This document shows positions 1 to 61,237 of a stretch of DNA of 64,000 nt, piece by piece. The first letter of the stretch is position 1. Each line of letters opens with the position of its first letter. Below the pieces are notes generated by a model. The model was not told where the DNA came from, made no database searches, and was given only the letters and a program-made list of their open reading frames with translations. The translations under genes and the position numbers were made by a program. This stretch comes from Candidatus Woesearchaeota archaeon (GTDB lineage: Archaea > Nanobdellota > Nanobdellia > CAZCWL01 > CAZQAZ01), in the NCBI GenBank assembly GCA_964591855.1, contig CAZQAZ010000002.1:36851-100850 (forward strand). The letters are read 5' to 3'.

Positions 1-9
1 TACACTTAC

Positions 10-2979
10 TTGAGTAGTCTTGGAAGTTTGACATGCGAGACTATAGAGAGATTAGAAAGAGAATCAGGTGTTATAAAGAATGTGGGTGAGGGTTACTTTG
101 TTAGTGAGGAATATAATTCTATGTATAATTACATTCCAGAGTATTGGGGAGAGGTTGATGATAACTTCAAAGGGACACTTGACTTGATGAAAGAAATATT
201 TGAGAAGGGGGTAGATTGGGAAGTAAGTCCAAAGCTAACTGTACCTAGTTACTTGGATTCAAGGTACCTTGAATACGAGGTTACAGCATATTCATTTGAT
301 CAAAATTTCTGTACGAATGGAAGACTAAGTAGTGAATCTAAAGGGTTATATACTCTAAAAGGGCAGTGTAATAGCAAGGATCTCCAGACCGATGAAACTT
401 GTAAGGACCCTTCAGTATATCCAAGCGAAGATGACGAATCCAAATATGCTGGCAGAGCCTTTAGAGATGATCTAAGTAACGATGATAATTACTTCTGTTC
501 AGACTTTACGTGTCATGCATGTTATAGAGGTCCAGAGGACATGTGGTTTAGCGGTGAGGCTAAAGAGTCGGAAAAGTTAAGTTTCGGACCATTCTGTCCT
601 ACAGGTATAAGCGTAAGCAATTCTTATGTTTATGGGATAAATTTAACTCTTAAGCCAGGAGCGTATCCAAAGGAGTGGACACCTGGTTTTGTGGTTTATA
701 TAGAACCTGACTATGATTTAGGTGTGAGTAAGGATGATTTAGAAAATGTACAAGTTAATATCTCAAATGTAGATCCCATAGGCAGGGAAGTAGACCACCC
801 CCTTTGTGAGGAAGTCACAGTATACGGTAAAGATGGCAATATTCTTACTGCAGATGAAGAGGGATGGTATACTGGTGCTAAAAAGGTTGTATGTAAACTA
901 GACTGGACGAAGCATGATGATCCAAGTGATGCGTTATATTACCTCGTATACGGTGGACCGACTAGATTAATCCCTGATAGCATTAATCTAACCTCCTACT
1001 TCCGTATAAAAATGAAAGAAGGAGACAACAGCAAAGCACATGTCAACTTCTTTATAGATATGGGTGTTGTTGGTAGTGATAGTGCATCAAGTCAAGGTGT
1101 GACCCCAGTTCTTCACGAGTATGATTGTTATAATGGGATAGACGATGATGGAGATGGAGCTATAGATCAAGATGACGATGATTGTAAGGAGGTTTGTAAT
1201 AATGGTGAAGACGATGACCACACAGTAAGCTCTAAAAAATTTGTAGAGATAATAAAAGGTTTTTATGAGGATCAAAATGATGAGTGTTACCAAGATTATT
1301 CCTGTGCTTTACAAAAAGCTATACAAAACGATCTTTTAACAGATACAGACCCCACTACTGGTGTTGATAGGGATGATTGGAAGTGTCACGAATATTCATG
1401 TACAGACGGGTCTGACGAGTATGATCCTAATAAATTCCCTGAGTTTTTCAACGACAACGATGGCAATGCGGATGGGAAAGATCCCGACTGTTGGGTTTAT
1501 GCAGACTTTTCTTGCTTAAGAGATTATGATCCAAGCAATCCATATACAACAAGCAAATTAAAAGATGGTGCTGAGGTGTTAAAACTTGTAGCAATAGTCA
1601 AAGTAAAAGATGAAGATGGGAATTGGCACTTTGTTAGAAGTGTTGATCTGGGTACAAGCGTTGTGGAGAACTACATAAACTTTTGTCCAACAAGCGAGAA
1701 TGATGAGGGACTCGTCTCCTTCTCCGGAGCTAATAATGGTTTGGTATCTATAGACTATCTTGGGACTGAGAGAAATTTCAGACCAATGCAGAGCCAGATC
1801 TCTCCTGGACTAGAAAAACCAATTGAAACTCCAGAAATACAGCCCATAAGAGGTCCATTTAGAATAGTACCTATAGAACCTGCTGACAAAGACATTGTTA
1901 CAGGAGATAGTGTTGAACTGAAGGCAGATGTTTTCAATGGGGATTCAAACTATCTTTATAGGTTTTACGTTAAGGACGTAACAAACCCTTCGGAGGGGGT
2001 GGAGACATGTGATGGAAGTGTGAAGAAATTGGAGGACAAACTAGAAGCTAGCTGTACATTTGAGGGCTTGAAAGAAGGACATGTATATGAATGGTATGTA
2101 GGAGCATATGATAAAGATGTGCCTGTGGGAACATTCTCCGATAAAAGTTTATTTAGAGTATCACCTGGTCCTGGAAGTATTTGCTACGATTACAAGGGAA
2201 ATGAGATTCCTTGTTCGTCCTTCGCAACTAAAAAGTATATAGATAGAAATCTTGTTACCCTTCCTTTAAGCTTCAAGTATGGTGCGTCAGTACACAAAAC
2301 GTATGAGTCAGAGGAACCACCAACGCCTAAGAACCCATCTTGCGGTGATTATCCAGTGGTTCAGTACTTCCCTGAAGAAGATAGGGCGAGTGATTTCTTA
2401 TTCGCATATAAGATACCTATTGAATCGTGTACAGGAAGCGACCAATGTAAGAAATGTACAATACGTTGTGGAATAGAGAGTGGAGGTATACTAAGTGAGA
2501 GTAAAGAAAGTGAGATCCTATCAAATGGTGAGGTTTGTAGTTTAGTTTGCTACGAAGAGAATGGTGATGAGGAATGCACAATATGGTGTAATCCATCTGA
2601 ACCGGAAGTGTCATGTTCTTGTAGTAAGAATGTGGCTAATGATCTTTATTATGATTACTACAACAAAGATGGCGTCCAAAGCAACGTTCGATGTAAAGAT
2701 GAGGAAGGCAAAGTTGAGTGTGTTGTGGATTACTTGGACTCGGATACAGGCGAAACAAAGAGGGTTTGCGATGTGATACACGATAAAACATGCGATGAAG
2801 AAAGGTGTGTATCTTGGGATTCAAATGATAATTGTGTGCCCGAGAGCTTTATTGCGTTTGAGAATAGAACTCTTGTTAATATGAGCTTTAAGTTCAAGTT
2901 TGATATAGATTACAATGCTTTGATCTCGCTTTACTCTAATGAAGATAGAGTACCAATGTTAATAGGGAGGGCAATATGA
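10..2979 (+). CDS. Large acidic cysteine-rich secreted protein; 5' end lies outside the window; contains a MopE/thrombospondin-like Ca-binding motif (CYNGIDDDGDGAIDQDDDDC) and an Ig/Fn3-like segment
   Basis: Open frame runs from the window edge for 989 aa. Very high Cys and Asp/Glu content. The CxDxDxDGxxDxDDDC motif was read directly. Its stop overlaps the next start (ATGA). Confidence 0.55.
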   Translation: MSSLGSLTCETIERLERESGVIKNVGEGYFVSEEYNSMYNYIPEYWGEVDDNFKGTLDLMKEIFEKGVDWEVSPKLTVPSYLDSRYLEYEVTAYSFDQNFCTNGRLSSESKGLYTLKGQCNSKDLQTDETCKDPSVYPSEDDESKYAGRAFRDDLSNDDNYFCSDFTCHACYRGPEDMWFSGEAKESEKLSFGPFCPTGISVSNSYVYGINLTLKPGAYPKEWTPGFVVYIEPDYDLGVSKDDLENVQVNISNVDPIGREVDHPLCEEVTVYGKDGNILTADEEGWYTGAKKVVCKLDWTKHDDPSDALYYLVYGGPTRLIPDSINLTSYFRIKMKEGDNSKAHVNFFIDMGVVGSDSASSQGVTPVLHEYDCYNGIDDDGDGAIDQDDDDCKEVCNNGEDDDHTVSSKKFVEIIKGFYEDQNDECYQDYSCALQKAIQNDLLTDTDPTTGVDRDDWKCHEYSCTDGSDEYDPNKFPEFFNDNDGNADGKDPDCWVYADFSCLRDYDPSNPYTTSKLKDGAEVLKLVAIVKVKDEDGNWHFVRSVDLGTSVVENYINFCPTSENDEGLVSFSGANNGLVSIDYLGTERNFRPMQSQISPGLEKPIETPEIQPIRGPFRIVPIEPADKDIVTGDSVELKADVFNGDSNYLYRFYVKDVTNPSEGVETCDGSVKKLEDKLEASCTFEGLKEGHVYEWYVGAYDKDVPVGTFSDKSLFRVSPGPGSICYDYKGNEIPCSSFATKKYIDRNLVTLPLSFKYGASVHKTYESEEPPTPKNPSCGDYPVVQYFPEEDRASDFLFAYKIPIESCTGSDQCKKCTIRCGIESGGILSESKESEILSNGEVCSLVCYEENGDEECTIWCNPSEPEVSCSCSKNVANDLYYDYYNKDGVQSNVRCKDEEGKVECVVDYLDSDTGETKRVCDVIHDKTCDEERCVSWDSNDNCVPESFIAFENRTLVNMSFKFKFDIDYNALISLYSNEDRVPMLIGRAI

Positions 2980-5078
2980 GAAAATTTGTTTATATTGCTG
3001 CTGTTGTATTGATTCTGCTAGTTGTACATCTGTCACTAGGGCTGCAGTACGACCAGAATACTAAGTGTGGAGATAAGGCCTTATCTAACAAGTTTGTTTT
3101 CTCTATTGATAACGGCTGTAAGCCATACGGTCAGAGTGGTAAGTATGTATTTACTTTTAGGGATGGGTTAGCAGCTAGAGGGGCATGTTTTGCAGAGGAT
3201 GGAAGATGTACAGAAAGCAGGTGTGATTTCTCACAACCAGATGGTTCCTTTTGTGCAGTAGGTGTTGGCATAGATAAAGGTGCTACGGAGTATGGTGCTA
3301 TTTGTAGTAGTAAAGATTATGCAGCATGGGACAACTCTTCAGGAGCATGCGTCGAATGTTCAGGAATATATGAGCTTGGAAAGTATGCCGACCAAAAAGA
3401 TATATACTTATCTCCAGAGAGTCCGCGTATAGACTCAAGTATAATGACTTTGCCAAAAGACACTCTTGGTGAGACAAGAAAGACAGTAGAGTCAGGTTGT
3501 GCAATTAGGATGGGATCTCCACTTGATGTTTATTGGTGCGATGAGTACTATCCCTTCTCTGAGGGCGAAGAATTAAACGAAGATCAAATTGACTTTTACC
3601 TTGATAAAGGAATATTTAGGCCAGATTCCTACAGGAAGGTTATTAAAAGTGAAGGTGATGACTTTGAAAAGTATGAATACTCGGATCCTATTCCCTCTAC
3701 AGAACTTCCACCGATAGCAACAGAGTGTTATACAAAGAATAAGTTTGGACAAGGGAAGTGTGCAGCTTACTGTGGTTATGATGGACAGTTGCATGCTATG
3801 GAATGTGTTGACGATAATGAGTGCCCAGACGCATTCCTCATCACCAAAGATCCAGACTCATCGGACTACTTCCCAAGATATGAAATAAGAAGATCTGTGA
3901 GGCACTGTACAAGGAAACTCCCATTTGAATGTGCAGTCGATTCCGAAGAGGATTTGGATGACTCAAGACAGGCATGTGCAGCTTACGGACTTCAATACAT
4001 TAAAGCAGGAGAGGAAAATGTAGGAGAGTATGTAGACACAGATACACTTGGATGTTGTGGAGATGATGTTTATGCAAATGGGAGACCAAAGGAATTTATA
4101 AGGTACAGGGTGGTTGTTGGAGGAAGGACAGATTATAGTGATGTAGCTTGTTGTGGAGGAGAGGATAGATGTGTATACAATGGCAAGTGTTACAAAGAAG
4201 GATCAGCTGTTACCATAGATGGAAGGAAAGCACATTGTTATAACGGTGTTTGGGTGGCAAGAGGCTTAGACTTATATTATGGCTATCCTTCATATGTAGA
4301 ACTTCCAAAGTGTGGAGACTATATATGTGATGTCTCCACAGGTGAGAATTGTTTCACCTGCCCAATAGACTGTAGCTTTGATAGAGAATTCTCAAGTGTG
4401 GAAGTGTTTGACAAGGAAGTAATGCACAAAGGAGATAAGGATTATTATCCAGACGAAGTTGGAAATTACCATAACAATTCCTTTGATCTTACATGGTCCG
4501 ATAAGATAGTATGCGCTCCGTACTCCAACTTAAAATATAAAAGTCTTTATGGCTGGACTAGAGAAAAGACTAATTTCAATAATTCAAGAGTTGTTGTAAA
4601 GTGCGATAGTGACGAAGGTAAGGGTTGCGACGATGAGTTATCCTGCGAAGGACTATTCTGGTTCAAGCAATCCTCTAATGCTTTCTGCGTTAAGGCTTCG
4701 CCTGGGGATAAGCTTGAAGTTGAGTTGGAGGATGAAAATAGTGGTGATCACAGCAAGATCTTCACTGTAGAAGAAATAGATCCAACAGCAACAGACAGGA
4801 CGAAACCATTTGGATGCTTAAACAAAGGGATAGTATGTTTTTATGTTGATGTACTTGGATTTGACTCCCATAATGTGGAAGAAGACTACGTAGATAAAAT
4901 TAAGAGTGTTAAATACATTCAGTATCCTAAATCAGTTAGATCAACATGTGAATATGATTCGGAATGTGAATCTCATAACTGTGCTAAGTTTGGAGTGACA
5001 GGTGTGTGCTGTCCTTATGGTTACAAATTCAACGGAGAGGAGTGTTACCTTCCAGAGCAGTTTGATTACGACTCTTAG
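2976..5078 (+). CDS. Cysteine-rich secreted/membrane-anchored protein (700 aa) with N-terminal hydrophobic signal/anchor
   Basis: ATG overlaps the upstream stop. N-terminus MRKFVYIAAVVLILLVV is hydrophobic. Many paired Cys (CCGG, CxxC). Confidence 0.6.
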   Translation: MRKFVYIAAVVLILLVVHLSLGLQYDQNTKCGDKALSNKFVFSIDNGCKPYGQSGKYVFTFRDGLAARGACFAEDGRCTESRCDFSQPDGSFCAVGVGIDKGATEYGAICSSKDYAAWDNSSGACVECSGIYELGKYADQKDIYLSPESPRIDSSIMTLPKDTLGETRKTVESGCAIRMGSPLDVYWCDEYYPFSEGEELNEDQIDFYLDKGIFRPDSYRKVIKSEGDDFEKYEYSDPIPSTELPPIATECYTKNKFGQGKCAAYCGYDGQLHAMECVDDNECPDAFLITKDPDSSDYFPRYEIRRSVRHCTRKLPFECAVDSEEDLDDSRQACAAYGLQYIKAGEENVGEYVDTDTLGCCGDDVYANGRPKEFIRYRVVVGGRTDYSDVACCGGEDRCVYNGKCYKEGSAVTIDGRKAHCYNGVWVARGLDLYYGYPSYVELPKCGDYICDVSTGENCFTCPIDCSFDREFSSVEVFDKEVMHKGDKDYYPDEVGNYHNNSFDLTWSDKIVCAPYSNLKYKSLYGWTREKTNFNNSRVVVKCDSDEGKGCDDELSCEGLFWFKQSSNAFCVKASPGDKLEVELEDENSGDHSKIFTVEEIDPTATDRTKPFGCLNKGIVCFYVDVLGFDSHNVEEDYVDKIKSVKYIQYPKSVRSTCEYDSECESHNCAKFGVTGVCCPYGYKFNGEECYLPEQFDYDS

Positions 5079-5080
5079 GA

Positions 5081-6325
5081 GTGAATAAAATGGTATCAAG
5101 TAAAGCTGTAGTTTTTGTTGTCTCGACGATAATAGTAGTGATAACCTTGTTTTACTTTGCTTTACCTGTTACATCAATTCTTCATGCTTCGGCAGTCGAA
5201 CTGAACATGAAATCTTACTATGCTTTAACCGATGCTATAAAAGAAGCAAACACAAAAGGCATGGGAATAACAGATAAAATCTACCTTCAGAACAATTATT
5301 TCATAGTCTTTTTCAGGAATAATGAAGTTCTTGATAAACTTGTTAAAGGGGAGATATCGGGGTTTGAGGTCAAAGAGTATGTTTTTGATGGGAGTAGGTC
5401 AGGTTATATGTATTACAGGTCTGGTGTAGATAAGAAAGTGTATGAAGTGGACAGTAAGGCGTTTTATGGTGAAGACGAATTGAACAAGTGCGATATGGAT
5501 GAAAACTGCGTATGTTTGGTGAATTTAGATTACTATGATCCCAGCAACATTAACACGTGGATATACCAAATAGGTACTGAGCAGGGCGGGTTTGGTTGTT
5601 TAGATAGAGTATCCATCCAAGATACAACTATGAATAAATGGGAGACAAATACAGAACCGTACTTTTATGAGGTGAAGCTTTTCAAGCCACTAGGATGTTC
5701 TATCCCACAGAATAATATGAAGGCACCAATTCTGGAGTACAGAGATGGTGAAGGGAAAACACACAGGTTCTTTACGGATTTCTCTACGCTTGCCTTCATG
5801 GATCAATTTATATCCAAAGTTGGGAAGAACTTTACCTTGACTTTCGTTGAGTGTAAGCCTATGAAGGAATTATGTTCATGTGATATCTGTAGTCTATATG
5901 CAGATGAATACTCATGTACAGGAACAGGCTACGAGGAAGGTAGCCACTTTGGATGTGCATGGGATAGTGAGAAAGGAATGTGCTACAATGAGAAAAATTA
6001 TGAAAACTCAACCAACGACTGTTCGTTATGGATAATAAGTGATAAGGTGCGTCAGATATATTCTATCACCGAAAGGTCTAAGTTTGATTACATAATCTTT
6101 AAGAAAGAAGGCTGTGCTTTGCAGTGGTTTGATTCTTCGAAGAGGCCAATTGGCACAGACTCTATCTTTTATGAAGATTATGGAGGAGAGCTATTTGTAG
6201 AGGGGAAGGGCGAGGATAAGGATAAGATTGGAGCATGTGAGCCATGTTTCCAGACTATACCTGTGGAGCAATGTGGGGATCAACAACCTTGCTGTAAAGA
6301 GGAGGCAAAGTGTTCTCCCATATAG
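5081..6325 (+). CDS. Cysteine-rich surface protein (414 aa) with class III-like signal (SSKA/VVFVVSTIIVVITLF) and a C-terminal CCK...C module
   Basis: Third gene of the translationally coupled operon. N-terminal basic stretch followed by a hydrophobic helix. C-terminus is CEPCFQTIPVEQCGDQQPCCKEEAKC. Confidence 0.55.
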   Translation: MNKMVSSKAVVFVVSTIIVVITLFYFALPVTSILHASAVELNMKSYYALTDAIKEANTKGMGITDKIYLQNNYFIVFFRNNEVLDKLVKGEISGFEVKEYVFDGSRSGYMYYRSGVDKKVYEVDSKAFYGEDELNKCDMDENCVCLVNLDYYDPSNINTWIYQIGTEQGGFGCLDRVSIQDTTMNKWETNTEPYFYEVKLFKPLGCSIPQNNMKAPILEYRDGEGKTHRFFTDFSTLAFMDQFISKVGKNFTLTFVECKPMKELCSCDICSLYADEYSCTGTGYEEGSHFGCAWDSEKGMCYNEKNYENSTNDCSLWIISDKVRQIYSITERSKFDYIIFKKEGCALQWFDSSKRPIGTDSIFYEDYGGELFVEGKGEDKDKIGACEPCFQTIPVEQCGDQQPCCKEEAKCSPI

Positions 6326-6385
6326 TAAGCTTTTTAAACAAATCCTTTCATATTGTTTTAATCTTAAATGCAGAGGTGATACAAA

Positions 6386-13774: not shown

Positions 13775-13796
13775 ACTTTAGTTTTTAACTTTGAAT

Positions 13797-13868
13797 GGGC
13801 TTGTGGTCTAGGGGTATGACGTCGCCCTTACACGGCGAAGGTCGCCGGTTCGAATCCGGCCAAGCCCA
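13797..13868 (+). tRNA. tRNA-Val (anticodon TAC)
   Basis: Cloverleaf folded by hand. Acceptor GGGCTTG/CAAGCCC, anticodon loop CTTACAC, T-arm GCCGG-TTCGAAT-CCGGC. No encoded CCA. Confidence 0.85.
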
Positions 13869-14399
13869 TTACTTCTTTTTACCCCACATCTCATAGAAGA
13901 TAAGATCATGTAGGCCTCTTCTTATAGGTATTCTAGCACTTTTGGAGTAGTGGCCTATTGTCACTAGACCAATAACTTTCACATGCTTTGGTATGCCAAG
14001 TATAGTTCTTACTTTCTCAGAGTCAAAGGCACCAACCCAACAAGAACCAAGTCCCAATTCTGTAGCCATTAATAACATGTTTTCTATAGCTGCCCCACCA
14101 TCGCACAATGCATATCTATATGCCATCTCGCCATACTTTGCCTCTAGAATCTCAAGGTTGGCACAAACAGCTATAATCACAGGAGCTTTGACTATCCAGT
14201 CCTGACCAAATGCTGCTTGGGCAAGTCTTTCTTTAATGAACTTTTTCCTTACTATAATGTATCTAATCTCTTGTGAATTACCAGCTGTTGGAGCCCATCT
14301 CCCGGCATTTATGATCTTAAGAACATCGTCCTCAGAAACAGGCCTGTCATCATACTCTCTTATGGACCTTCTATTTATTACAAGGTTCTCGAAGTTCAT
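13869..14399 (-). CDS. Nitroreductase-family NAD(P)H oxidoreductase
   Basis: RRSIREYDDRPVSEDDVLKIINAGRWAPTAGNSQ nitroreductase fold signature. Confidence 0.75.
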   Translation of the reverse strand: MNFENLVINRRSIREYDDRPVSEDDVLKIINAGRWAPTAGNSQEIRYIIVRKKFIKERLAQAAFGQDWIVKAPVIIAVCANLEILEAKYGEMAYRYALCDGGAAIENMLLMATELGLGSCWVGAFDSEKVRTILGIPKHVKVIGLVTIGHYSKSARIPIRRGLHDLIFYEMWGKKK

Positions 14400-14500: not shown

Positions 14501-15277
14501 ATGGTACTAAGCGAAGAGACGTTGGCAAAATTAAGGAGAATGTTTGGATTGAATCTTTATGAAGTAAGGATCTGGACAGCTTTGCTATCTAGAGGTAAGA
14601 GTACAGCTGGAGAATTATCTGAGATAGCAAATGTTCCAAGATCAAGAACCTATGATATTCTAGAATCCTTAGAGAAGAAAGGTTTTGTGATGATGAAGAT
14701 GGGTAAGCCAATTCAGTATTTAGCTATACCACCAAACGAGGTTATAGAAAGAGCGAAGGCAAATCTTGAGAAGGAAAAGAAGATGAAAGAGAAGATGTTA
14801 GATGAGCTAAAGAAGTCAAAGGAAATGAGTGAACTTCAATTGTTGTTCAAGCAAGGAATAGAGTATATCGACCCACTTGATCTTTCTGGTGTAGTTAGAG
14901 GTAGAGAAAACATATATGCAAGATTGGAAGCCATGATAAACAATTCCAAAAAGCATGTTAACATAGTAGTTCCTCCATCAGAGGTTAAGGACAAGTTTGA
15001 AGCAGTGAAGAAGGCCATTGAGAAGGCAAAGAAAAGAGGTGTGAAGGTTAATATCATAACTAAATCCACGCCGGAGAATAAAGACTTAATTCAAGCTGTT
15101 GCAAAGATGGCCAACATAAAAGAAAAAGATTTGAATGCAAGAATAGCAATAGCCGACAACAAACAAGTTTTATTCATGCTCTTGCCTCATGAAGAAGTGC
15201 ATCCAAAGTACGATGTTGGTGTTTGGGTGCAGTCTGAATTGTTTGCAAATGCTTTGAACAAGATGATAGGCCAGTAA
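14501..15277 (+). CDS. TrmB-family winged-helix transcriptional regulator
   Basis: N-terminal TrmB-type HTH (YEVRIWTALLSRGKSTAGELSEIANVPRSRTYDILESLEKKGFV) followed by a coiled coil. Start moved to the ATG downstream of the promoter; the track start at 14489 is TTG. Confidence 0.7.
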   Translation: MVLSEETLAKLRRMFGLNLYEVRIWTALLSRGKSTAGELSEIANVPRSRTYDILESLEKKGFVMMKMGKPIQYLAIPPNEVIERAKANLEKEKKMKEKMLDELKKSKEMSELQLLFKQGIEYIDPLDLSGVVRGRENIYARLEAMINNSKKHVNIVVPPSEVKDKFEAVKKAIEKAKKRGVKVNIITKSTPENKDLIQAVAKMANIKEKDLNARIAIADNKQVLFMLLPHEEVHPKYDVGVWVQSELFANALNKMIGQ

Positions 15278-17996: not shown

Positions 17997-18069
17997 AGCC
18001 CCGTCGTCTAGTGGTCAAGGATGCGGGCCTTTGGAGCCTGAGACCCCGGTTCGAATCCGGGCGGGGCTA
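17997..18069 (+). tRNA. tRNA-Gln (anticodon TTG)
   Basis: Acceptor AGCCCCG/CGGGGCT. Anticodon stem CGGGC/GCCTG with loop CTTTGGA. T-arm CCCGG-TTCGAAT-CCGGG. The D-arm pairing is imperfect in the hand fold. Confidence 0.75.
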
Positions 18070-30056: not shown

Positions 30057-30302
30057 ATGGAGACAATTATATGTAACACAAAGCTTAAACAGCTTAGAGG
30101 TCTTATGTTTAGATTCAAAAAAGTTAGAGCTGTCTTCCCGGCAATACCTGTCCACACTTGGTTTGTCTTCTACCCAATAAAGTTAAAGTGGCTAGACAAA
30201 AACAAGAATTTAATCAAGGAAGAAATAGCAAAACCCTTCTCACTTAGGGTCTTCCACCCCCCAAAGAACGCATCCCATCTAATCGAGGAACCTCCTAATT
30301 AA
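30057..30302 (+). CDS. DUF192/COG1430-like small protein
   Basis: LRGLMFR and WFVFYPIKLKWLD motifs resemble DUF192. The match is weak. Confidence 0.4.
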   Translation: METIICNTKLKQLRGLMFRFKKVRAVFPAIPVHTWFVFYPIKLKWLDKNKNLIKEEIAKPFSLRVFHPPKNASHLIEEPPN

Positions 30303-30664
30303 CTGCAGGTAGATGCTGAGCAGTTTAGTCGACAAGATATTCCCGAAGGGTCCGTTAGTCTACATATTGTTAACTCTTTACATGTCATAGATTTACCACC
30401 GACAGTTACGGGCTCTGTACAGAAACTTATACCTACAGGTATACAATCACATTCCCCATCTTCATCATCATCTACTAATGATGTTATTAGCTCTTGGTCT
30501 TTGGCGCATACATTCTTACAGTGTGCTATTGCTTGAGCTGAAGATATACCTGCACCACCACCTTTTTGTGCGGATGTGAAGAATAGAAGTATAGCAGCAA
30601 GAGTAATAACTGCTAACGCCAAGACAATTATAAACTCAATTGGAATGGATACCCCTTTTTTCAA
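30299..30664 (-). CDS. Class III signal peptide (type IV pilin-like) cysteine-rich protein, paralog 1
   Basis: Pilin-like N-terminus KKG/VSIPIEFIIVLALAVITLAAILLFF followed by HCKNVCAKDQE...CKELTICRLTDPSGISC. The track ORF extends to 30742 (TTG) and overlaps the upstream gene, so start is placed at the in-frame TTG giving MKKGV. Confidence 0.6.
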   Translation of the reverse strand: MKKGVSIPIEFIIVLALAVITLAAILLFFTSAQKGGGAGISSAQAIAHCKNVCAKDQELITSLVDDDEDGECDCIPVGISFCTEPVTVGGKSMTCKELTICRLTDPSGISCRLNCSASTCS

Positions 30665-30705
30665 GTTACCACCTAAGTCTAAGAGACATTTGTTCTTTTT
30701 AAGCT

Positions 30706-31107
30706 TTAAGTTTGGCCAGACTGTCCACAAGAGGCCACACAAGTTCCTCCAAAGTTGTCTACTAGTTTACATGTTGTAATTTCATAGCATGGCGTCTTTT
30801 TGCCTTCAATGTAATAATGTCCATTACAGAACTTTGATGCAAGATTACCATACTCCTTACTACTATCTATACATCCTTCGTATCTAAGCTCCCCAGAATC
30901 TAATCTTTCGGTAAGATTTATCCCAGCAGGTAGAGCAGATCTGTCTTGCATACATAAGTTCAAACAAAAGGAAGTAGCCTTAATTGAAGAAGTTCCACTT
31001 TCTCCTTTAGCAGATTTTGAGATAAGCATAACGGCTGCTGCTAAGACCATTAGACCTATCCCAACTGCTACTAGAAAATTCATCATAGCACTTCCTTTCT
31101 TTGGCAT
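30706..31107 (-). CDS. Class III signal peptide (type IV pilin-like) cysteine-rich protein, paralog 2
   Basis: MPKKG/SAMMNFLVAVGIGLMVLAAAV followed by FCLNLCMQDRS...CYEITTCKLVDNFGGTC. Confidence 0.7.
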   Translation of the reverse strand: MPKKGSAMMNFLVAVGIGLMVLAAAVMLISKSAKGESGTSSIKATSFCLNLCMQDRSALPAGINLTERLDSGELRYEGCIDSSKEYGNLASKFCNGHYYIEGKKTPCYEITTCKLVDNFGGTCVASCGQSGQT

Positions 31108-31145
31108 AATTATCTAAAGAATGCTGAGTATATAAACTTTACAAT

Positions 31146-31706
31146 CTAACAGTTCACCCATGAGGCTAAGCAGCCCTCTTTTGGCAATTTACAGCATGCG
31201 CCAATGTTTAAGCATTTTTGTTTGTTAAGGATAGTGCTGTGGTAGTCTGGTCCTATGTAATTCAATTTACATAGTCTCTCCATTTTTCTTGTACCAACTT
31301 CACATGTATCACCTATACAACTAGGTATTCCACCATCTAATACACATGCAATTTCACATGCTTTTTTCATATCAACAGTTAGATTCGTAATCTCACAAGT
31401 CTCACCAAATGAATCCTTGATTACACAGCTTGTTAGGTCAAAGCATGTTACAGTTTCTCCACCTATTCTAAACTTAAGTTTCGCGAACTCTGATTCTTGA
31501 GACGTAACGCATACACCTTCTATGCTAACACTATCTAACCTCGAGTCGTTAAGACATGCAGCTTCACACATCTTTATAGCAGTGGTCCTTGAGACAGTTC
31601 CTATCCCAAGCAGTCCTACATTCCTAAGCATGATAAGAGCGACCAATATAACAGCTACTATTATAACAATTGTTATAAGCATGGTGAATTGTATTCCTCT
31701 TTTCAT
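31146..31706 (-). CDS. Class III signal peptide (type IV pilin-like) cysteine-rich protein, paralog 3 (two Cys modules)
   Basis: MKRG/IQFTMLITIVIIVAV. Module A is KMCEAACLNDS...TCFDLTSCVIKDSFGETC. Module B is KACEIACVLDGG...CCKLPKEGCLASWVNC. The track start 31715 (MVFM) lies 9 nt upstream. Confidence 0.7.
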   Translation of the reverse strand: MKRGIQFTMLITIVIIVAVILVALIMLRNVGLLGIGTVSRTTAIKMCEAACLNDSRLDSVSIEGVCVTSQESEFAKLKFRIGGETVTCFDLTSCVIKDSFGETCEITNLTVDMKKACEIACVLDGGIPSCIGDTCEVGTRKMERLCKLNYIGPDYHSTILNKQKCLNIGACCKLPKEGCLASWVNC

Positions 31707-32230
31707 GAACACCAACTCTTACTAAAGTATTTCCCATCTCTTATACACTTCTTCCCACCAACCGTCTCGCAGTCTGTTTTCAAAACAGTCCAAAGCTCAC
31801 ATAGCTTTGGGAACCTATCAGGTTCTTGGTCTGAGAGAAGACCATAACTTCCACCGTCTATCTCGCACGCCTTCTGACATGTTTTAATCTTGCTGAATGT
31901 AATGGGAGATACAGCACAGATGCCATACTCTGTTGACATCCTACACTCTGTTAAGTTGTAACAATTAACTTTTCCCATACCTTCCACATTTAGGTATGTG
32001 TGAATAAAAGAATAGTCATCACTATATGCACATGAGCCTTCTAGGTTAACGGCTCCATGTATAGAGTCCTCTGAACATAGATCATCGCATTTTGATATCG
32101 CACTAAGTTGTGTTATTGTTGCTGCACTTGGCTTCGTAAGGGATCCAGATAAATAAAGACCAACGAGAAGAACCATAACCCCCACGGCGACTGCTAGCAA
32201 AAAGCTAAATCCTGCTTGCAAAGCTTTCAT
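31703..32230 (-). CDS. Class III signal peptide (type IV pilin-like) cysteine-rich protein, paralog 4
   Basis: MKALQAG/FSFLLAVAVGVMVLLV followed by KCDDLCSEDS...NCYNLTECRMSTEYGIC...CQKACEIDGG. Confidence 0.7.
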   Translation of the reverse strand: MKALQAGFSFLLAVAVGVMVLLVGLYLSGSLTKPSAATITQLSAISKCDDLCSEDSIHGAVNLEGSCAYSDDYSFIHTYLNVEGMGKVNCYNLTECRMSTEYGICAVSPITFSKIKTCQKACEIDGGSYGLLSDQEPDRFPKLCELWTVLKTDCETVGGKKCIRDGKYFSKSWCS

Positions 32231-35259: not shown

Positions 35260-38200
35260 TTAACACTGTAGCCATGAAGCTATGCAGTTGTATTCTGGGA
35301 GCTTACAGCAGTAGCCGCTTGCCTTACACTTCTCTAGGTTGTCTTGATTTGTTTGGAAGGTTGGCCCTATCTTGTTAAGCTCACAAACTGTAGGGGTTGG
35401 ACTTTCACCCTCTTCGAAGTTCCACACGTCACTTCCACAGCTATTCAAGCTCCCACAAGTGACAGGCTCTCCACCATCTTTCAAACAAGCCTCCACACAA
35501 GCTTTTCCAAAATCCGTTGAATCCCTGCTTATGTAACAATCACCCAAACTGCAGGTTAGCACTTGATCACAATATACAGTTGTTCCTTCGACATTGAAAC
35601 TTAAGCTTGCAAAGTCTGAACTATTAAAGTAACACACCCCATTGATGTTAACAAACTCTTTGTTTGTGTCATTCATACAAGCTTCCTCACACATCCTCTG
35701 AATCTCAGGATGTGTGGATATTATCTTCTCCACATTTGTATGTTTGATTAATGTGTTACAATCGTACACGTTATTGGATCCAAGATCGTTAGGGAGTATA
35801 TCACCTTTTGTATCCAGTAGACACACATTTCCTTCCATCTTGTTATTGTTGAAAGTCACAGGAGTATCAAACACAAACCCATATACATTGTTCACGAAGT
35901 TGTTACTGTCAAACACACCACTGCATTCGCTACATAGCACACCATAGTAATTAGAGTAGAATGTATTACCTACCACGTTTACATTTCCACCTATAGCACT
36001 TATGCCAGAGTCTGAGTTCGAGAATGAAGATGATTTGATATTTCCAACACCAGAGACTCTGACATAATTTAACCCAGTTATATCGGAGTCTTCGATTGTT
36101 ATATTACCATAAGATTCAATCTTAAAGTCCTTATCTGCATAATGGATTTTAACCCCCTTCAGCGTGAGGTTTCCATAGTTCACCAAACTACATGGAGATG
36201 TACAGTTGATGTACAAGTTAACATTCTCTAAAGTAAGATTTCCATGCACAGTTGTATTCTTAAGGAGCACAACACCTAAGTTCTTAACATTACAGTTGTC
36301 GGATTTCTCAACTATCCAATCTTTGTACGTTGAAGGATAGCACCTATTCTCTTCGAGAACAGCAATAATCTTTTTTGGAGAATCAAATCTAACTTTAAGT
36401 GTGGTGTAGTTATAATGTCTCCAGTAATTTAAGACCTGAGCACCTGTTACGTTGACTGTGTAATCTCCCACATCAATTAAGTTAAAGTCCTTGTCGAGAT
36501 AATACGCCTGTCCACACCATGTTTTAACTGGCGAAGAAATGTATCCTGCATCACATTCTAAAATCCTTGTGGTTGGATAGGGTCTTATCTTATTTCCATT
36601 TGTGTCTTTAATTTCTATCTCTATTATGCTTGTTGATGCAATTAAACCTTTAGTATTGCTATCAGGCAAGAGTGTGTTTTTCGAACTCAAGCTATTAAAG
36701 AAAGCTTCGATATCACTCCCAGATATGTCTGAGTTGACGAGCATTATTAAGAATGAACCTCCTTTTAAAGTGTTCCCTTCTATGTCAACATTGTTTTCCG
36801 AAGTAAGTCTTATAGGATTGTTATAGTACTTGTAGTCCTTTACGGTTACAGAGTTGTGTTTAATGGAACCTGAGGAGTTGGATACAGAGATCCATCCAAC
36901 ATTCATATCATTTGATGTTAAGTTTATTGTAGAGTTTGTTATTGCTAAACCAATTGATTGATCTACATCATTGTTGCTAAACTCCACCGTTGAGTTGTAA
37001 GAGTAGAGAGGATAGACTACACCAACTATGTTGCTCTCATTAATCTTAGCTTTTGAGTTAAGCACATAAAATCCATAGTATGTTTTGTAACTTCTACCGC
37101 CAGAGAATGTGAAGTTGGTGTTTGATATGTTCACACCCTTTTCATCGGATATGTAAACACCGCCATACATTCTCTTATATGGACCCGACATGAATCTATT
37201 CTTATAGAATGTGACATTCTTGTTATTTATGAGGTAGACCTCAAATATGTAACTTGATGTATTTGTGTGGAAGGTGTTATTTGTTATGTTGATGTATGAG
37301 TTTGTTGAATAGATCCCCCTCGCTCCGAAAAATGTGGAGTTGGAGACAGTTATGTTAGAGCCTCTTGCGAAGAGTCCATAATAACTCTTGTCCACCACAT
37401 TTTTAAGTGTCAAGTTAGACTCAACCGAAACAACACTTACTCCCTTGTTGTTGAAGAAAGCGTCCTTAATTTCCCCACTTGAGTTGAAGTAGTAAAGAAG
37501 CTTATTGACCTTACCAAAATCTCCAAATGATCCATAAAAGTCTTGCTTGGTGTTGAGATTGTATAGAAGTATCTTAACATTGTCTGCTTTGTTACCCCTT
37601 CCATATACTTTGTTGGTGTTGTGGATTCCTAACTTATAGTCGTATGAGAACGAGTTACCGAAGAATAATGCTTCTCCGTAATTGTAGACGAAGGAATATG
37701 CATGATCCCATGTGTTACTAATAAACCTTGTCCCTACAGCATAGTTTTTAACAGGGATGTATGCGTTTGTGAATACATTCTTTAATAGAACAGTGGGCTC
37801 CACTATGTTTAAAGCCCTCCTTCCAAAGAAAGTGTTTCCAACGAGTTTAATCTTCTCGCCCACATCAAAGTCTTTGTCTAGTTCTATGTTATTCCCTTTT
37901 AGAACGATATGATTACTAAGTGACAGTTGGCTGGTTTTGATACTGTTTCCTCTTATCACAGCCTTACTTGTTCTCACATCTAACTCTGAGTTGTGAAGTA
38001 TTGATTTTTGGATGTTCAATGAGGATCCTTCTAAAGCAGTTATGTATGCCTTACTAACAAACGAGCTGGCTATTAGTATTTGACCACCCTGGTTAGCTTG
38101 TATGGTCTTTGAGTTTCCATTAAGGTAAGAGTTTATTAAAACAAGCGCTCCACCGTCCTTCACCACAATAGGATACTTTAAGTCTATGTCTTTACCATAA

Positions 38201-39273
38201 CAAACCTCCACGTCTTTAATCTCCCAAGTTCTATCTTCTGGTATTCTACAATTGGATATGTCGTACACTCTATATTCGTTGTTTGTGTAGTTTGCATCGC
38301 CTTGTGTGGAGTTTACCACAAGTCTCAATGGAAGAATAGAACCCATATTGAAAGCATCGTATTTTGTGTTGAGCATTATAGTGCCTGCAGTCCCAACTGG
38401 GAGTGTTCCTTTTGTATACTCCAGAAGCTTTTGGTTTCTTTTGTTGAACAAGGTTAAGTTATAGTCCTCAGCGTCTACGAGTCCAAGATTATAAACTGAA
38501 GTCTGAAGAGTTCCTTCTAGAGGAGTGTAGTATAACACGTATGGCTTAATTTCTGCTTGGGAACCCATATCAAATTTAATTGATATGGTATTCGAATTAA
38601 AGAGATGTGAGAAGTCATAAGGTTCAGAATCATTTGAGGCACCATTCTCTATAATAGCTTCGTATGTTCCATCGGCTCCAAAGTCTACTCTTATTTTCCC
38701 AGAGTAGCTTGTTGTCAAGTTTGCGAAGTAGATGACAGCTCCTTGTGGTAAAGTAATATGTACTACGTCCCCTGGATTAATAGTGTTTCCCTCATTAAAA
38801 GTGTTGGTTACGTTGATCTCATTAAGAGTGAAGTTAAACTCAGCACCAAGTATTGTTTGGTCTGGAAGATAAACGAGTGAACAGTCTTGTGGACACGTTT
38901 CTTCTGTTTCATTCCCATTACATATTCCATCTCCACAGTATGCCCCAACACATGTTCTCTTGGATACGACACAAGTACGTCCAGAACTATCGGTCAATGT
39001 ACATTTAACGTAGTTATAACAGTCCTTCGAACAGAAGTTTGGAGCCAGACCTTGGCTACAGAACCCCCTATCAGATGTAACGGTTCTGACGATATTATTG
39101 TCCTCTTCACATAACTCCCTACATTCTTTCTCAAGGCTAACTATACTTTGAACTTGCTCCGTTCCACCTTTAGATCTGATAACCAAGAAGTATACTGCTG
39201 CAAGAACGGCAACTGCTATTATTACAACAGCTAGAATCTCTACGCTGCTAGCCCTCTTGTAAGCTTTGTACAT
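35260..39273 (-). CDS. Giant (1337 aa) class III signal peptide surface protein/adhesin candidate: pilin-like N-terminus, Cys module A, long N-x-S/T-rich beta-helix-like repeat region, C-terminal Cys modules A and B
   Basis: N-terminus MYKAYKRA/SSVEILAVVIIAVAVLAAV. Then EKECRELCEEDNN...CSQGLAPNFCS. Central region is rich in N, S, T and Y with dozens of NxS/T sequons (NITNNTFHTNTSSY...). C-terminus MCEEACMNDTN...YCDQVLTCSLGDC and KACVEACLKDGG...CCKLPEYNCIASWLQC. Confidence 0.75.
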   Translation of the reverse strand: MYKAYKRASSVEILAVVIIAVAVLAAVYFLVIRSKGGTEQVQSIVSLEKECRELCEEDNNIVRTVTSDRGFCSQGLAPNFCSKDCYNYVKCTLTDSSGRTCVVSKRTCVGAYCGDGICNGNETEETCPQDCSLVYLPDQTILGAEFNFTLNEINVTNTFNEGNTINPGDVVHITLPQGAVIYFANLTTSYSGKIRVDFGADGTYEAIIENGASNDSEPYDFSHLFNSNTISIKFDMGSQAEIKPYVLYYTPLEGTLQTSVYNLGLVDAEDYNLTLFNKRNQKLLEYTKGTLPVGTAGTIMLNTKYDAFNMGSILPLRLVVNSTQGDANYTNNEYRVYDISNCRIPEDRTWEIKDVEVCYGKDIDLKYPIVVKDGGALVLINSYLNGNSKTIQANQGGQILIASSFVSKAYITALEGSSLNIQKSILHNSELDVRTSKAVIRGNSIKTSQLSLSNHIVLKGNNIELDKDFDVGEKIKLVGNTFFGRRALNIVEPTVLLKNVFTNAYIPVKNYAVGTRFISNTWDHAYSFVYNYGEALFFGNSFSYDYKLGIHNTNKVYGRGNKADNVKILLYNLNTKQDFYGSFGDFGKVNKLLYYFNSSGEIKDAFFNNKGVSVVSVESNLTLKNVVDKSYYGLFARGSNITVSNSTFFGARGIYSTNSYINITNNTFHTNTSSYIFEVYLINNKNVTFYKNRFMSGPYKRMYGGVYISDEKGVNISNTNFTFSGGRSYKTYYGFYVLNSKAKINESNIVGVVYPLYSYNSTVEFSNNDVDQSIGLAITNSTINLTSNDMNVGWISVSNSSGSIKHNSVTVKDYKYYNNPIRLTSENNVDIEGNTLKGGSFLIMLVNSDISGSDIEAFFNSLSSKNTLLPDSNTKGLIASTSIIEIEIKDTNGNKIRPYPTTRILECDAGYISSPVKTWCGQAYYLDKDFNLIDVGDYTVNVTGAQVLNYWRHYNYTTLKVRFDSPKKIIAVLEENRCYPSTYKDWIVEKSDNCNVKNLGVVLLKNTTVHGNLTLENVNLYINCTSPCSLVNYGNLTLKGVKIHYADKDFKIESYGNITIEDSDITGLNYVRVSGVGNIKSSSFSNSDSGISAIGGNVNVVGNTFYSNYYGVLCSECSGVFDSNNFVNNVYGFVFDTPVTFNNNKMEGNVCLLDTKGDILPNDLGSNNVYDCNTLIKHTNVEKIISTHPEIQRMCEEACMNDTNKEFVNINGVCYFNSSDFASLSFNVEGTTVYCDQVLTCSLGDCYISRDSTDFGKACVEACLKDGGEPVTCGSLNSCGSDVWNFEEGESPTPTVCELNKIGPTFQTNQDNLEKCKASGYCCKLPEYNCIASWLQC

Positions 39274-39315
39274 GAAAAATTAAAGAAGTAATACTTAATA
39301 AAACTAATTAAGCAA

Positions 39316-39666
39316 CTAGCAGCTATTAGAGGTCACAACACAAGTTCTCCCATCTTCAAATGTTAGAACACATTTAGTTATGTCGTAACATCTCAAGGTT
39401 CTGCCTGCTATCTTAAATGAACCGCTACAGAAGTTTGGAGCTAGACCCTGTCCACAAGACCCATCTTCATATATCTCTCCACTAATAAGAAGCTGGTTGT
39501 CCTTAGCACAGGCAGCTTCACATGAGGACTTAGCATCGGATAGGGTTATAGACTCCCCAGATTGTGCTTTCCCTTTGAAAACTAGGTAAAGTCCAGCTAC
39601 CGCCACCATAGCACTTAATATGATAACGACTATCAAGTTTATCGAACTTTGTCCTCTCATCCACAT
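39316..39666 (-). CDS. Class III signal peptide (type IV pilin-like) cysteine-rich protein, paralog 6
   Basis: MWMRG/QSSINLIVVIILSAMVAVAG followed by SSCEAACAKDNQ...CGQGLAPNFCSG...CYDITKCVLTFEDGRTCVV. Closely matches the N-module of the giant protein. Confidence 0.7.
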   Translation of the reverse strand: MWMRGQSSINLIVVIILSAMVAVAGLYLVFKGKAQSGESITLSDAKSSCEAACAKDNQLLISGEIYEDGSCGQGLAPNFCSGSFKIAGRTLRCYDITKCVLTFEDGRTCVVTSNSC

Positions 39667-40076
39667 CTCACTCCTATAGCTTCTAATCTATCAACGACAC
39701 CAAGCTGTTCGGCATAATTACATATCTCTTCTTCATCGTAGCTTGAGAGCTCACCAAAGTAACATATCCCCCAAGGTGTTTCAGCTGAACATTGGACTAT
39801 GTCATAACAGTGTTTGGTCTTGCCACTTAACTTGAACTCAAGCTTTCCAAAATCTGACTTTGGATTTGTATAGCATTGTCCATCTATGCTTGTTATGTTT
39901 TTGTATTGGTCAAGCAGACAAAAATCGCTGCATTTTGATTTTAAAGATGCTCTTGAGAGGGAGCCGAGATTGGAGATGTAACCTTTATTGAATATGAAGA
40001 TGACTATTAGTATAACTGAGAGAGCAAGTAAAGCTGCTATGACATAGTTTATTCCCAGTGAAACACCTTTTTTCAT
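39657..40076 (-). CDS. Class III signal peptide (type IV pilin-like) cysteine-rich protein, paralog 7
   Basis: MKKG/VSLGINYVIAALLALSVILIV followed by KCSDFCLLDQ...HCYDIVQCSAETPWGIC. Confidence 0.7.
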   Translation of the reverse strand: MKKGVSLGINYVIAALLALSVILIVIFIFNKGYISNLGSLSRASLKSKCSDFCLLDQYKNITSIDGQCYTNPKSDFGKLEFKLSGKTKHCYDIVQCSAETPWGICYFGELSSYDEEEICNYAEQLGVVDRLEAIGVRCG

Positions 40077-60119: not shown

Positions 60120-61127
60120 ATGGATTTGAAGGCGAAGAAGTACGAGGTCTCATTTAAATCTTTACTTGGATTAATTCCAAAGCCAAGTAGAAGCTTTGAG
60201 CCAACTAAGTTAAGTAAGCCAAAGGCAGTGAAGTTTTTGGCTTTGTTCACAATCCTATTCGCCGTTGCTTTTGGATTTAATCTTTTTGTGTACAAGAGTG
60301 TATTCTCTTATACTTATGAGGGAATACTTTATTCCCTTTTCCAATTTAAGACAGAGTTTTTTAATTTGTTCCTAATCTTGCCTTTCTCCTTACTTTTCCT
60401 ACTGGTTTTTGTACTCGTGGTATCATTTTCAGGTGTGTTTGAGAAGTCTGATGGAATATATGCATCTATAATTGTTTTTATCATAATTATGGTTGAGTCA
60501 ATTTTAATTCTCGGCCACTCTCCCGTCACAATAATATCCTCGTTATTTATAGCTATATCCATACCATATGCAATGAATTACATAAGGAAAAGATTAGGAT
60601 TGTTTAAAGTTAGACAATTATTTTGGAAGGGAACATATATCCTCTTTATAGCAGTGTCTCTTTCCTTAGCCTTAGCGTTTTTCACATCGTTCTTAGTAGA
60701 CCTTGATTACAACATCCTAGCAACAAAACAAGCATTCATCAATGCACCTTCCATAGGTTCAACTTCAGGTCTAGATGCTCTTAAGAATCAAATAAGGCAA
60801 GCTTACATAATAGGCTTCATGGAAGGTGTAGATTACCAAGCAGGATCTAATTTAACAGACTTTGAAAGACAACTTGCTAAGGAGGAGGCAAAATCTAGAG
60901 CTTCTGAGATACTTGAATCAGCTAGAGGTTTACAGATTCTTAGCCAGTACGCGGAGGAATTCCCTTACTTTAACATTCTAATCATACTCATACCAATCTT
61001 AATCTCAGCAGCCATATTCTCCTTATCATTCTTATTCTTCACATTCGTGTTAAGGCCAATATGTGTCGTCCTTTCCTTATTGCTTTACGAGAAATTGATG
61101 AGGTTGTACATAAGATTGAATTATTAG
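60120..61127 (+). CDS. Polytopic membrane protein of unknown function
   Basis: 335 aa with several predicted TM helices. No recognisable family. Confidence 0.4.
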   Translation: MDLKAKKYEVSFKSLLGLIPKPSRSFEPTKLSKPKAVKFLALFTILFAVAFGFNLFVYKSVFSYTYEGILYSLFQFKTEFFNLFLILPFSLLFLLVFVLVVSFSGVFEKSDGIYASIIVFIIIMVESILILGHSPVTIISSLFIAISIPYAMNYIRKRLGLFKVRQLFWKGTYILFIAVSLSLALAFFTSFLVDLDYNILATKQAFINAPSIGSTSGLDALKNQIRQAYIIGFMEGVDYQAGSNLTDFERQLAKEEAKSRASEILESARGLQILSQYAEEFPYFNILIILIPILISAAIFSLSFLFFTFVLRPICVVLSLLLYEKLMRLYIRLNY

Positions 61128-61165: not shown

Positions 61166-61237
61166 GCGCCAATAGTCTAGTGGTTAGGATGCGGGCTTGC
61201 CAAGCCTGTGACCCGGGTTCGAATCCCGGTTGGCGCA
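61166..61237 (+). tRNA. tRNA-Gly (anticodon GCC)
   Basis: Acceptor GCGCCAA/TTGGCGC. Anticodon stem CGGGC/GCCTG with loop TTGCCAA. T-arm CCCGG-GTTCGAATC-CCGG. TATA-like TTTTATAAT/TAATAAAT upstream. Confidence 0.85.

Follow-up and report, generated by a model that had tools for sequence, protein, structure and literature searches.

Loci for archaeal type IV pili (T4P) and related type IV filaments (TFF) combine an ATPase, a platform protein, major pilins, at least five minor pilins, and large secreted proteins predicted to be adhesins or surface-layer (S-layer)-like, sometimes with conserved cysteines (Makarova et al. 2016, PMC4858521). In the arrangement termed 'system 2', a long ATPase and a single platform gene are accompanied by pilin-like proteins without class III motifs and by large adhesin-like proteins (bioRxiv 10.64898/2026.04.22.720090). 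In bacteria, PilY1 and PilC are reported to attach by their last ~10 residues, which join a minor pilin by beta-strand addition (PMC13533445). Here we consider three consecutive forward-strand genes, ORF1, ORF2 and ORF3, that open a 64,000-nt stretch of a Candidatus Woesearchaeota archaeon genome (assembly GCA_964591855.1, contig CAZQAZ010000002.1, forward-strand positions 36,851 to 100,850; the whole stretch is referred to below as the window). We find them to be the last three genes of a same-strand cluster of 18, and on balance we favour the interpretation that they are the distal genes of an archaeal type IV filament locus, encoding exported, pilus-associated accessory proteins of the adhesin or tip type. 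The type of system is known already, whereas the three protein families are new.

An earlier reading of this DNA, made without database searches (below, the sequence-only reading), had described an operon of three genes. The tight linkage it saw is confirmed and is syntenic in four lineages, but the trio is in fact the 3' end of a longer cluster that also holds an ATPase, a platform-like protein and pilins. The DNA upstream of the window was read from contigs 99.8% identical to it (JGI 3300022188, a Guaymas Basin hydrothermal metagenome, PMC8762117, and an ENA assembly), and from a relative of 65% identity (GCA_053993735.1). The 18 genes are collinear in two lineages (L005 and L007), and they overlap or lie at most 64 nt apart, most of them at most 18 nt. 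In cluster order they are:

g1, 751 aa, cluster start, outside the window: secretion ATPase of the FlaI/GspE2/CpaF type
g2, 686 aa, overlapping g1 by 8 nt: platform-like protein with ~8 hydrophobic segments and no Cys
g3, 133 aa: Cys-rich pilin, homologous to the stand-alone pilins of the window
g4 to g7, 729, 51, 591 and 316 aa: proteins with one N-terminal hydrophobic segment each
g8 to g10, 52-62 aa: three tiny pilins
g11, 596 aa: protein with a Cys module in common with ORF3
g12 to g15, 315, 197, 360 and 611 aa: minor-pilin-like proteins, each opening with [KR]K[SAG]Q and a hydrophobic stretch
g16 to g18, 1259, 700 and 411 aa: ORF1, ORF2 and ORF3

The product of g1 matches the Pfam T2SSE model at 65 bits (cut-off 24.9), and its PDB matches include GspE2 of A. 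fulgidus (2OAP, 5e-26), CpaF (1e-20) and FlaI (5e-18). Beside this machinery, g3 is homologous to one of the small pilins encoded elsewhere in the window (39316-39666, E 5e-11), which bears out the previously proposed link between the trio and a pilin-like family, and its N-terminus matches Arch_flagellin weakly (E 0.009). By motif inspection, the class III signal pattern is met by g3, g8-g10 and g12-g15, and by their orthologues in L003 and L011; to judge from sequence, the [KR]K[SAG]Q element and hydrophobic stretch of g12-g15 fit such a signal, and all 12 orthologues examined for these four minor-pilin-like genes retain the K[SAG]Q motif. According to hydropathy, every cluster protein that is not part of the machinery has a single, N-terminal hydrophobic segment. 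Cysteines make up 1.6-6.3% of the larger exported proteins of the cluster, and number zero or one in the ATPase and the platform-like protein, as they do in g8-g10 and the 51-aa g5. We also observed that g6 and g7 (L007 6710-9446) look paralogous, with NPL(F/Y)PGG.G.NP..CS(I/V)I.Y.L... and (V/G)I(F/Y)(V/I)TFLD... segments in both, and that a g7-like fragment precedes the pilins in L011.

The order of the genes, and the junction from the cluster to the Alba-FKBP-FtsZ genes that follow it, are kept in four lineages, including the distant L011. There, pilins are followed by a g11-like gene and then by four K[SAG]Q genes, after which come an ORF1-like and an ORF2-like gene and Alba-FKBP-FtsZ; ORF3 is missing, and the ORF1-like protein has only its C-terminal domain in common with ORF1. 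In three lineages ORF1 directly follows the four minor-pilin-like genes; in L004 the contig ends inside the ORF1 orthologue. Pairwise identities of the ORF1- and ORF2-like proteins across lineages range from 65-67% down to ~23-30%.

This content closely resembles that of the published archaeal loci. As in the T4P/TFF loci and system 2, there is a long (751-aa) ATPase with a single platform-type gene, several class III pilins occur together with pilin-like proteins that lack a canonical signal, the locus closes with large secreted proteins, and conserved cysteines occur in the exported components. ORF1 and ORF2 are therefore read as accessory proteins that would work with the minor-pilin-like proteins. 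Two differences stand out: ORF1-3 match no described family and no arCOG-derived Pfam model, including DUF2341, and the platform-like protein has no detectable similarity to T2SSF or FlaJ. Archaeal filament loci are known to carry large, unassigned adhesin-like genes, and the present arrangement provides a testable hypothesis of how such proteins dock.

Within the window, the three genes and their junctions are arranged as follows:

1..2979, forward: ORF1, the last 992 of the 1259 aa of a secreted protein that is acidic and rich in Cys
2965..2971, forward: Shine-Dalgarno (SD)-like GGGAGGG, inside ORF1 and 4 nt before the ORF2 ATG
2976..5078, forward: ORF2, 700 aa, secreted, with 44 Cys (6.3%)
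5077..5083, forward: SD-like AGGAGTG, 6 nt before the ORF3 ATG
5090..6325, forward: ORF3, 411 aa, with 20 Cys, either membrane-anchored or pilin-like
6326..6385, forward: 60-nt intergenic region that closes the cluster; it contains a T-run and TTTAAA (CTTTTTAAAC), followed by an AGGTGAT SD site ahead of the Alba gene

The ORF calls support three consecutive plus-strand genes, as had been stated earlier. Frame 1 is open from the first base of the window, and the ORF given as '989 aa' is therefore a gene truncated by the window edge: the ORF is real, but it encodes the C-terminal 992 of 1259 residues of a protein that has its own Sec-type signal peptide. The full gene is found in the near-identical contigs (L001 and L007), with its start and signal peptide upstream of the window, and an exhaustive search recovered the same 1259-aa protein (P0009), of which ORF1 of the window forms residues 268-1259. 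The junctions between the three genes are overlaps or gaps of at most 11 nt, with internal SD sites. As previously reported, the ATG of ORF2 overlaps the ORF1 stop as ATGA (2976-2979), yet 4-nt overlaps join at least five other gene pairs in the window, and are thus so common in this compact genome that the overlap alone is not special. ORF2 ends with TAG at 5076-5078. For ORF3 the ORF list offers a GTG start at 5081, but the ATG at 5090 is the most likely start, because the protein would then begin with MVSSK, which does not vary among three orthologues, and because this ATG is preceded at 6 nt by AGGAGTG; ORF2 and ORF3 are consequently 11 nt apart, rather than the 2 nt claimed before. In the spacer after ORF3 a T5 run sits at 6331, and the junction from the cluster to Alba is kept in L001, L003, L004 and L011.

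The three proteins also stand out in their composition. Cysteine amounts to 4.1% of ORF1, 6.3% of ORF2 and 4.9% of ORF3, compared with a median of 0.85% and a maximum of 3.23% among 45 other ORFs of the window; elsewhere in the window, high Cys content is confined to the pilin-like genes at 30.3-32.2 kb and 35.3-40.1 kb. Asp and Glu together account for 15-19% of residues and give a net charge of -5 to -10 per 100 residues, unlike most other window ORFs, which are net positive. The Cys-rich, acidic character noted from the sequence is thus well founded, and the cysteine content is not typical of the other proteins encoded in the window. The description of these cysteines as often paired was overstated, given that the 105 of them include only four CC and six CxxC motifs. 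The haem motif CxxCH is absent from ORF1-3, and with so few CxxC motifs the proteins are not multihaem c-type cytochromes. N-glycosylation sequons are not enriched in ORF1-3 (4-5 per 1000, versus 3.8). Among orthologues, 61% (ORF1), 82% (ORF2) and 79% (ORF3) of Cys columns are invariant, compared with 17-31% of columns for other residues. Such preferential conservation is, as a pattern read from alignments, a signature of structural cysteines, and we infer that they form disulfides, or possibly metal-Cys clusters. Together with the predicted signal peptides, this supports the earlier suggestion of exported, Cys-stabilised proteins as a prediction. A scan of window ORFs brought up no disulfide oxidoreductase. 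The locus shows that an organism which is apparently anaerobic makes extensive use of conserved cysteines in its exported proteins.

Database searches returned few relatives. ORF1-3 and all cluster proteins were searched against Pfam, NCBIfam and PDB by sequence and profile, without a significant match for ORF1-3; since no domain match was found, enzymatic or otherwise, we reject an enzymatic role. Word-indexed searches of 5.8 billion proteins with ORF2, ORF3 and g11 recovered orthologues only: ORF2 has just three homologues in this collection, and the ORF3 profile found three relatives only. With ORF1 as query, phmmer was run exhaustively against 1.84 billion representatives and returned the protein itself, one orthologue, two relatives limited to the C-terminal domain, and matches to a motif only. 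A scan of GTDB genomes with the ORF2 profile yielded one unrelated carrier of an ORF2 module, and a scan of JGI metagenomes with the g15 profile yielded g15 itself and one fragment only. On this sequence record, the three families are undescribed and extremely narrow in distribution, and add three families with essentially no relatives to the 'dark matter' of archaeal surfaces.

In its full length ORF1 opens with a Sec-type signal peptide (…STSFA|AE), which is the only hydrophobic segment of the protein. Its features within the window are:

1126..1185, forward: acidic loop CYNGIDDDGDGAIDQDDDDC (ORF1 window aa 376-395), of the DxDxDGxxD type between two Cys, a putative Ca2+-binding site
1384..1491, forward: second acidic Cys-bounded segment CHEYSCTDGSDEYDPNKFPEFFNDNDGNADGKDPDC, conserved (alignment A5)
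1861..2148, forward: predicted Fn3/Ig-like beta-sandwich domain, matching the Fn3/Ig repeat protein P0018 (E 5.5e-5)
2173..2283, forward: first half of the C-terminal domain, GSICYDYKGNEIPCSSFATKKYIDRNLVTLPLSFKYG, conserved in L003, L004 and P0022 (L011)
2416..2775, forward: lineage-specific Cys-rich insertion of ~120 aa, splitting the C-terminal domain
2848..2976, forward: extreme C-terminus ...FENRTLVNM.F.F..D.Y..L.SLYS..DRVPMLIGRAI, a candidate docking strand

The N-terminal part of the protein varies by lineage (three-way alignment), and in the L004 orthologue (L004 1-1500) the N-terminal region of the window protein is replaced by a multi-blade Kelch beta-propeller (Pfam E 6e-35). By contrast with this variable part, the last ~45 residues are well conserved in all five homologues, with a minority of positions strictly invariant, and nine of the ten columns that are invariant across the four-row alignment A6 fall in the C-terminal segment. 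The ~120-aa insertion is missing from the homologues in L003, L004 and P0015. A model built with AlphaFold2 (AF2) places a terminal beta strand at residues 985-990, with low confidence. In the Fn3/Ig-like region, a weak Pfam fn3 match (E 0.17) coincides with the sole part of the AF2 model (aa ~630-700) that reaches a predicted local distance difference test score (pLDDT) of 53-73; this part consists of beta strands only, and agrees with the match to the Fn3/Ig-repeat protein. Positions of CHEYSCTDGSDEYDPNKFPEFFNDNDGNADGKDPDC that are invariant in A5 comprise W727, C729, E731, C734, D736, D739, F746, P747, F750 and N751, and further D752, D754, D758, D761, D763 and C764.

The acidic loop of ORF1 had been likened to a repeated MopE or thrombospondin type 3 (TSP3) calcium-binding motif. 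The peptide CYNGIDDDGDGAIDQDDDDC is indeed present, and three orthologues do not differ at its C, G and D residues, but the protein holds one full copy and degenerate acidic copies rather than a clean repeat. Moreover, neither MopE (PF11617) nor TSP3 (PF02412) matched full ORF1 at E<=1 or the isolated motif peptides at E<=10, and the best EF-hand match is insignificant (E 0.3), so that membership of all three families is discarded. What the loop does match (E 1e-11 to 1e-4) is the CxNGxDNDGDGxxDCxDxDC module of giant bacterial surface proteins, which are adhesin-like and rich in Ig, PKD, SprB and lectin domains. Judged by its sequence, the loop is a genuine instance of this widespread, unnamed module of SprB/T9SS-type proteins, and its C, G and D residues are spaced as in the copies of P0011-P0023; it differs from these relatives in that they carry arrays (5-13 repeats), whereas ORF1 has a single canonical copy. 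The module belongs, with the MopE-type and TSP3 motifs, to the CxDGxDNDxDGxxD acidic motifs.

These traits of ORF1 invite comparison with the tip module of bacterial T4aP, fimU-pilVWX-pilY1 (PilY1/PilC adhesins with PilIJK minor pilins, PMC13533445). In both, four minor-pilin-like genes are followed by a Sec-secreted non-pilin of more than 1100 aa, and ORF1 resembles PilY1 in its putative Ca-binding site, its variable N-terminal part, and its conserved C-terminal part and extreme C-terminus. The two differ in belonging to different domains of life and in using different pilin families, and ORF2 and ORF3 have no counterpart in the PilY1 system. We treat the parallel as a functional analogy and not as homology, with docking as a candidate function only. 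A bolder proposal, to which we would give a rather small chance, holds that ORF1 does in archaea what PilY1/PilC do in bacteria: a beta-strand made of its last ~10-45 residues would enter one of the K[SAG]Q minor-pilin-like proteins and thereby license filament assembly, a swappable head would be carried at the tip, and ORF2 would be a second tip subunit. The product of g15, immediately upstream of ORF1, is the largest of the four minor-pilin-like proteins. The swappable head may be the Cys/Ca2+ module in the lineage of the window and the Kelch propeller in another. If this proposal is true, licensing of type IV filaments by beta-strand addition extends to Archaea, and the head of ORF1 becomes a candidate determinant of host or partner recognition in an archaeon of hydrothermal sediment.

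ORF2 has a single hydrophobic segment, which is N-terminal. The sequence-only reading had assigned N-terminal anchors to both ORF2 and ORF3; each has one such segment, but that of ORF2 looks like a cleavable Sec-type signal peptide (aa 1-22, from nt 2976 to 3041), and its orthologues show cleavage-type sites (VKA|I and VFA|G). Beyond the signal peptide, two regions are of note:

3954..4406, forward: central Cys domain, with conserved AGEENVGEY..CCGDD ... CC ... CGDYICD..GENCFTCPIDCS
4947..5066, forward: C-terminal Cys knot, CEYDSECESHNCAKFG..GVCCPYGYKFNGEEC, kept in all four homologues

The central domain is 44% identical to a 590-aa protein of L011 (E 6e-35), over that domain only. A related AGEEGVGEY..CCGDD module occurs, apparently twice, in a 1353-aa surface protein (L012 9206-13267) of a metagenome-assembled genome labelled 'bacterium' (DAOOOW010000001.1), and other regions of that protein resemble Fn3- and CARDB-type domains by eye. 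At the sequence level this suggests that AGEExVGEY..CCGDD is a small, undescribed Cys module common to different domains of life. At its C-terminus the ORF2-like protein of L011 (8983-10755) has a moderately hydrophobic tail (...INIGTAVILNLGGFL), which ORF2 of the window lacks; the tail might replace an anchoring function in this locus, which is without ORF3.

ORF3 begins with MVSSKA|VVFVV... and a hydrophobic helix (nt 5090-5179), both conserved; the hydrophobic segment covers residues 7-25, and AF2 places a helix at 4-56 with low confidence. The class III signal proposed earlier (SSKA/VVFVV) is only partly upheld, as the pattern is present in two of three orthologues (MVSSKA|VVF in the window and L003), while L004 has K-V in its place (MVSSKV|IVF). 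Further along, the protein carries one recognisable module:

5852..6022, forward: Cys module resembling the plexin-semaphorin-integrin (PSI) domain, common to ORF3 and the upstream 596-aa g11

The ORF3 and g11 modules match one another with a BLASTP E-value of 0.002 (hhalign probability 43%, E 2.5e-4). The likeness to PSI lies in similar Cys spacing at aa 267-317, including a C-x-W-D...C element; formal membership of PF01437 was rejected, at 15.2 bits against a cut-off of 23.1 (E 0.029).

Comparison of the window with the near-identical contigs revealed 35 differences in 15 kb, which cluster at 1139-1273 and 3971-4041, and also at 14930-15043. In ORF1, 11 differences fall within 135 nt, in and just after the acidic motif, and nine of these are nonsynonymous (seven residues changed, including I380R); in ORF2, seven fall within 70 nt of the AGEENVGEY..CCGDD module (V353P, D356N). 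The housekeeping genes between the clusters have six changes, five of them synonymous. The clusters could be recombination tracts, the product of diversifying selection, or the result of consensus mixing during assembly.

Bringing these strands together, we suggest that ORF1-3 would be exported, and that disulfides, or possibly metal-Cys clusters, would stabilise them along with Ca2+. Together with the four minor-pilin-like proteins encoded upstream, they may then build a complex associated with the filament, its most likely place being the tip, which would present a variable binding head to a surface or a partner cell, with the conserved C-terminus of ORF1 as the candidate docking element. 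The idea of a host-interaction complex, raised in the sequence-only reading, stays reasonable in this light. Even should our interpretation be wrong, the description of the locus as a three-gene operon of MopE-like or S-layer proteins is corrected.

Several observations weigh against the interpretation that these are filament-associated accessory proteins. The platform-like g2 has no match to Pfam T2SSF, to FlaJ or in PDB, and no prepilin peptidase of the FlaK/PibD/EppA type (Peptidase_A24, Arc_PepC) was found among the scanned window and cluster proteins, which cover part of the genome only. Homology of ORF1 to PilY1/PilC or DUF2341 was not found in Pfam at E<=1 or in the PDB profile search, nor was the C-terminal beta-propeller domain of PilY1/PilC matched. 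The AF2 models of ORF1 and ORF3 have mean pLDDT values of 36.4 (alignment of four sequences) and 31.8 (three sequences) and are unusable, and thus provide no evidence of fold for either protein. ORF3, with three orthologues only, is missing from the more distant syntenic locus L011 and so lies outside the conserved core. Co-transcription of ORF1-3 is predicted from spacing and synteny only, and a location at the tip is not distinguishable from one at the base or in the envelope. Finally, given an anaerobic ribonucleotide reductase in the window and a hydrothermal sediment as habitat, extracellular disulfides are not self-evident.

The alternative that survives best, although we consider it unlikely, is that ORF1 and ORF2, with ORF3 as an anchor, are S-layer-like or wall-associated proteins that form a surface layer, or prime it locally for the passage of a filament. 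Archaeal T4P loci often hold S-layer-like proteins with conserved cysteines (PMC4858521), and adhesin-like components may prime the wall (bioRxiv 10.64898/2026.04.22.720090); the proteins studied here are likewise large, acidic and secreted, with Ig/Fn3-like content and an N-terminal anchor in ORF3. However, ORF1 and ORF2 lack a C-terminal transmembrane anchor by hydropathy, and no S-layer domain was matched in Pfam, NCBIfam or PDB. Additionally, ORF1-3 come last in an 18-gene cluster with junctions of the translational-coupling type, a position more in keeping with low-copy components than with a bulk lattice protein; the family is extremely narrow in distribution, and the N-terminal Kelch swap in one lineage is more typical of a binding head. 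The S-layer or sheath suggested in the sequence-only reading is consequently left without positive evidence.

If, instead, the machine were a type II secretion system (T2SS)-like pseudopilus, ORF1 and ORF2 could be its cargo, released as effectors or binding proteins. Their signals are of the Sec type and not class III, as in T2SS substrates, and their genes directly follow four minor-pilin-like genes that resemble a GspH-K set. We nonetheless think this improbable: the cluster holds no outer-membrane or secretin-like component, we know of no established T2SS-like export in archaea, the several candidate major pilins, including those at stand-alone loci, argue for a real filament, and the conserved C-terminal tail of ORF1 suggests stable docking.

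A role in metal handling, with ORF1-3 as MopE-like or other extracellular Cu-, Zn- or Fe-binding proteins engaged in acquisition or redox chemistry, would make sense of the very high content of conserved cysteines, the acidic clusters, and the anaerobic, metal-rich hydrothermal habitat; we hold it to be very improbable, as PF11617 has no match even at E<=10, CxxCH is lacking and CxxC scarce, no redox or cofactor domain was found, and the genomic context is that of a pilus locus. Least probable of all is that the three genes are fast-evolving hitch-hikers without a functional tie to the upstream cluster, since, for all that ORF3 is absent from L011 and the families are tiny, the ORF1- and ORF2-like genes hold their cluster position across lineages down to ~23-30% identity and their Cys and acidic residues are under clear constraint.

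Further Cys-rich pilin-like genes lie elsewhere in the window, where the sequence-only reading had mentioned a pilin-like locus downstream of the trio:

30299..32230, reverse: four small, stand-alone, Cys-rich pilins whose class III signals are of the KG|V type and which the machinery of the cluster probably takes as substrates
35260..40076, reverse: a 1337-aa modular pilin or adhesin and two small Cys-rich pilins

The family link of the pilins at 30299-32230 is drawn through the homology of g3 to the pilin at 39316-39666, which belongs to the other locus. The six small proteins (30299-32230 and 39316-40076, reverse strand) have 116-189 aa, 6-8.5% Cys and KG|V/I-type class III signals. No ATPase is encoded near them, and their genes flank others for tRNA modification (archaeosine TGT and a radical SAM protein). 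The 1337-aa protein (35260-39273, reverse strand) has the N-terminus of a class III pilin, followed by a Cys-rich pilin module. Its very long repetitive region, rich in Asn and Gly, looks like a beta-helix and bears 32 N-x-S/T sequons, and the protein ends in Cys-rich modules (...CCKLPEYNCIASWLQC). The faint likeness once seen between the CCK-containing end of ORF3 and 'module B' of the pilin-like family is marginal for this protein (score 39; shuffled sequences average 26 +/- 5, and 9 of 300 attain that score), and at chance for two other pilins.

Among the remaining genes of the window we noted an anaerobic (class III) ribonucleotide reductase, NrdD, which points to life without oxygen, and near it a 335-aa low-charge, membrane-like protein without a Pfam match (noted together at 55923-57947, reverse strand, and 60120-61127, forward strand). 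Apart from tRNAs, no further Rfam family reached threshold in the window; the tRNAs are tRNA-Val(TAC) at 13796-13869, tRNA-Gln(TTG) at 17997-18069 and tRNA-Gly(GCC) at 61166-61238.

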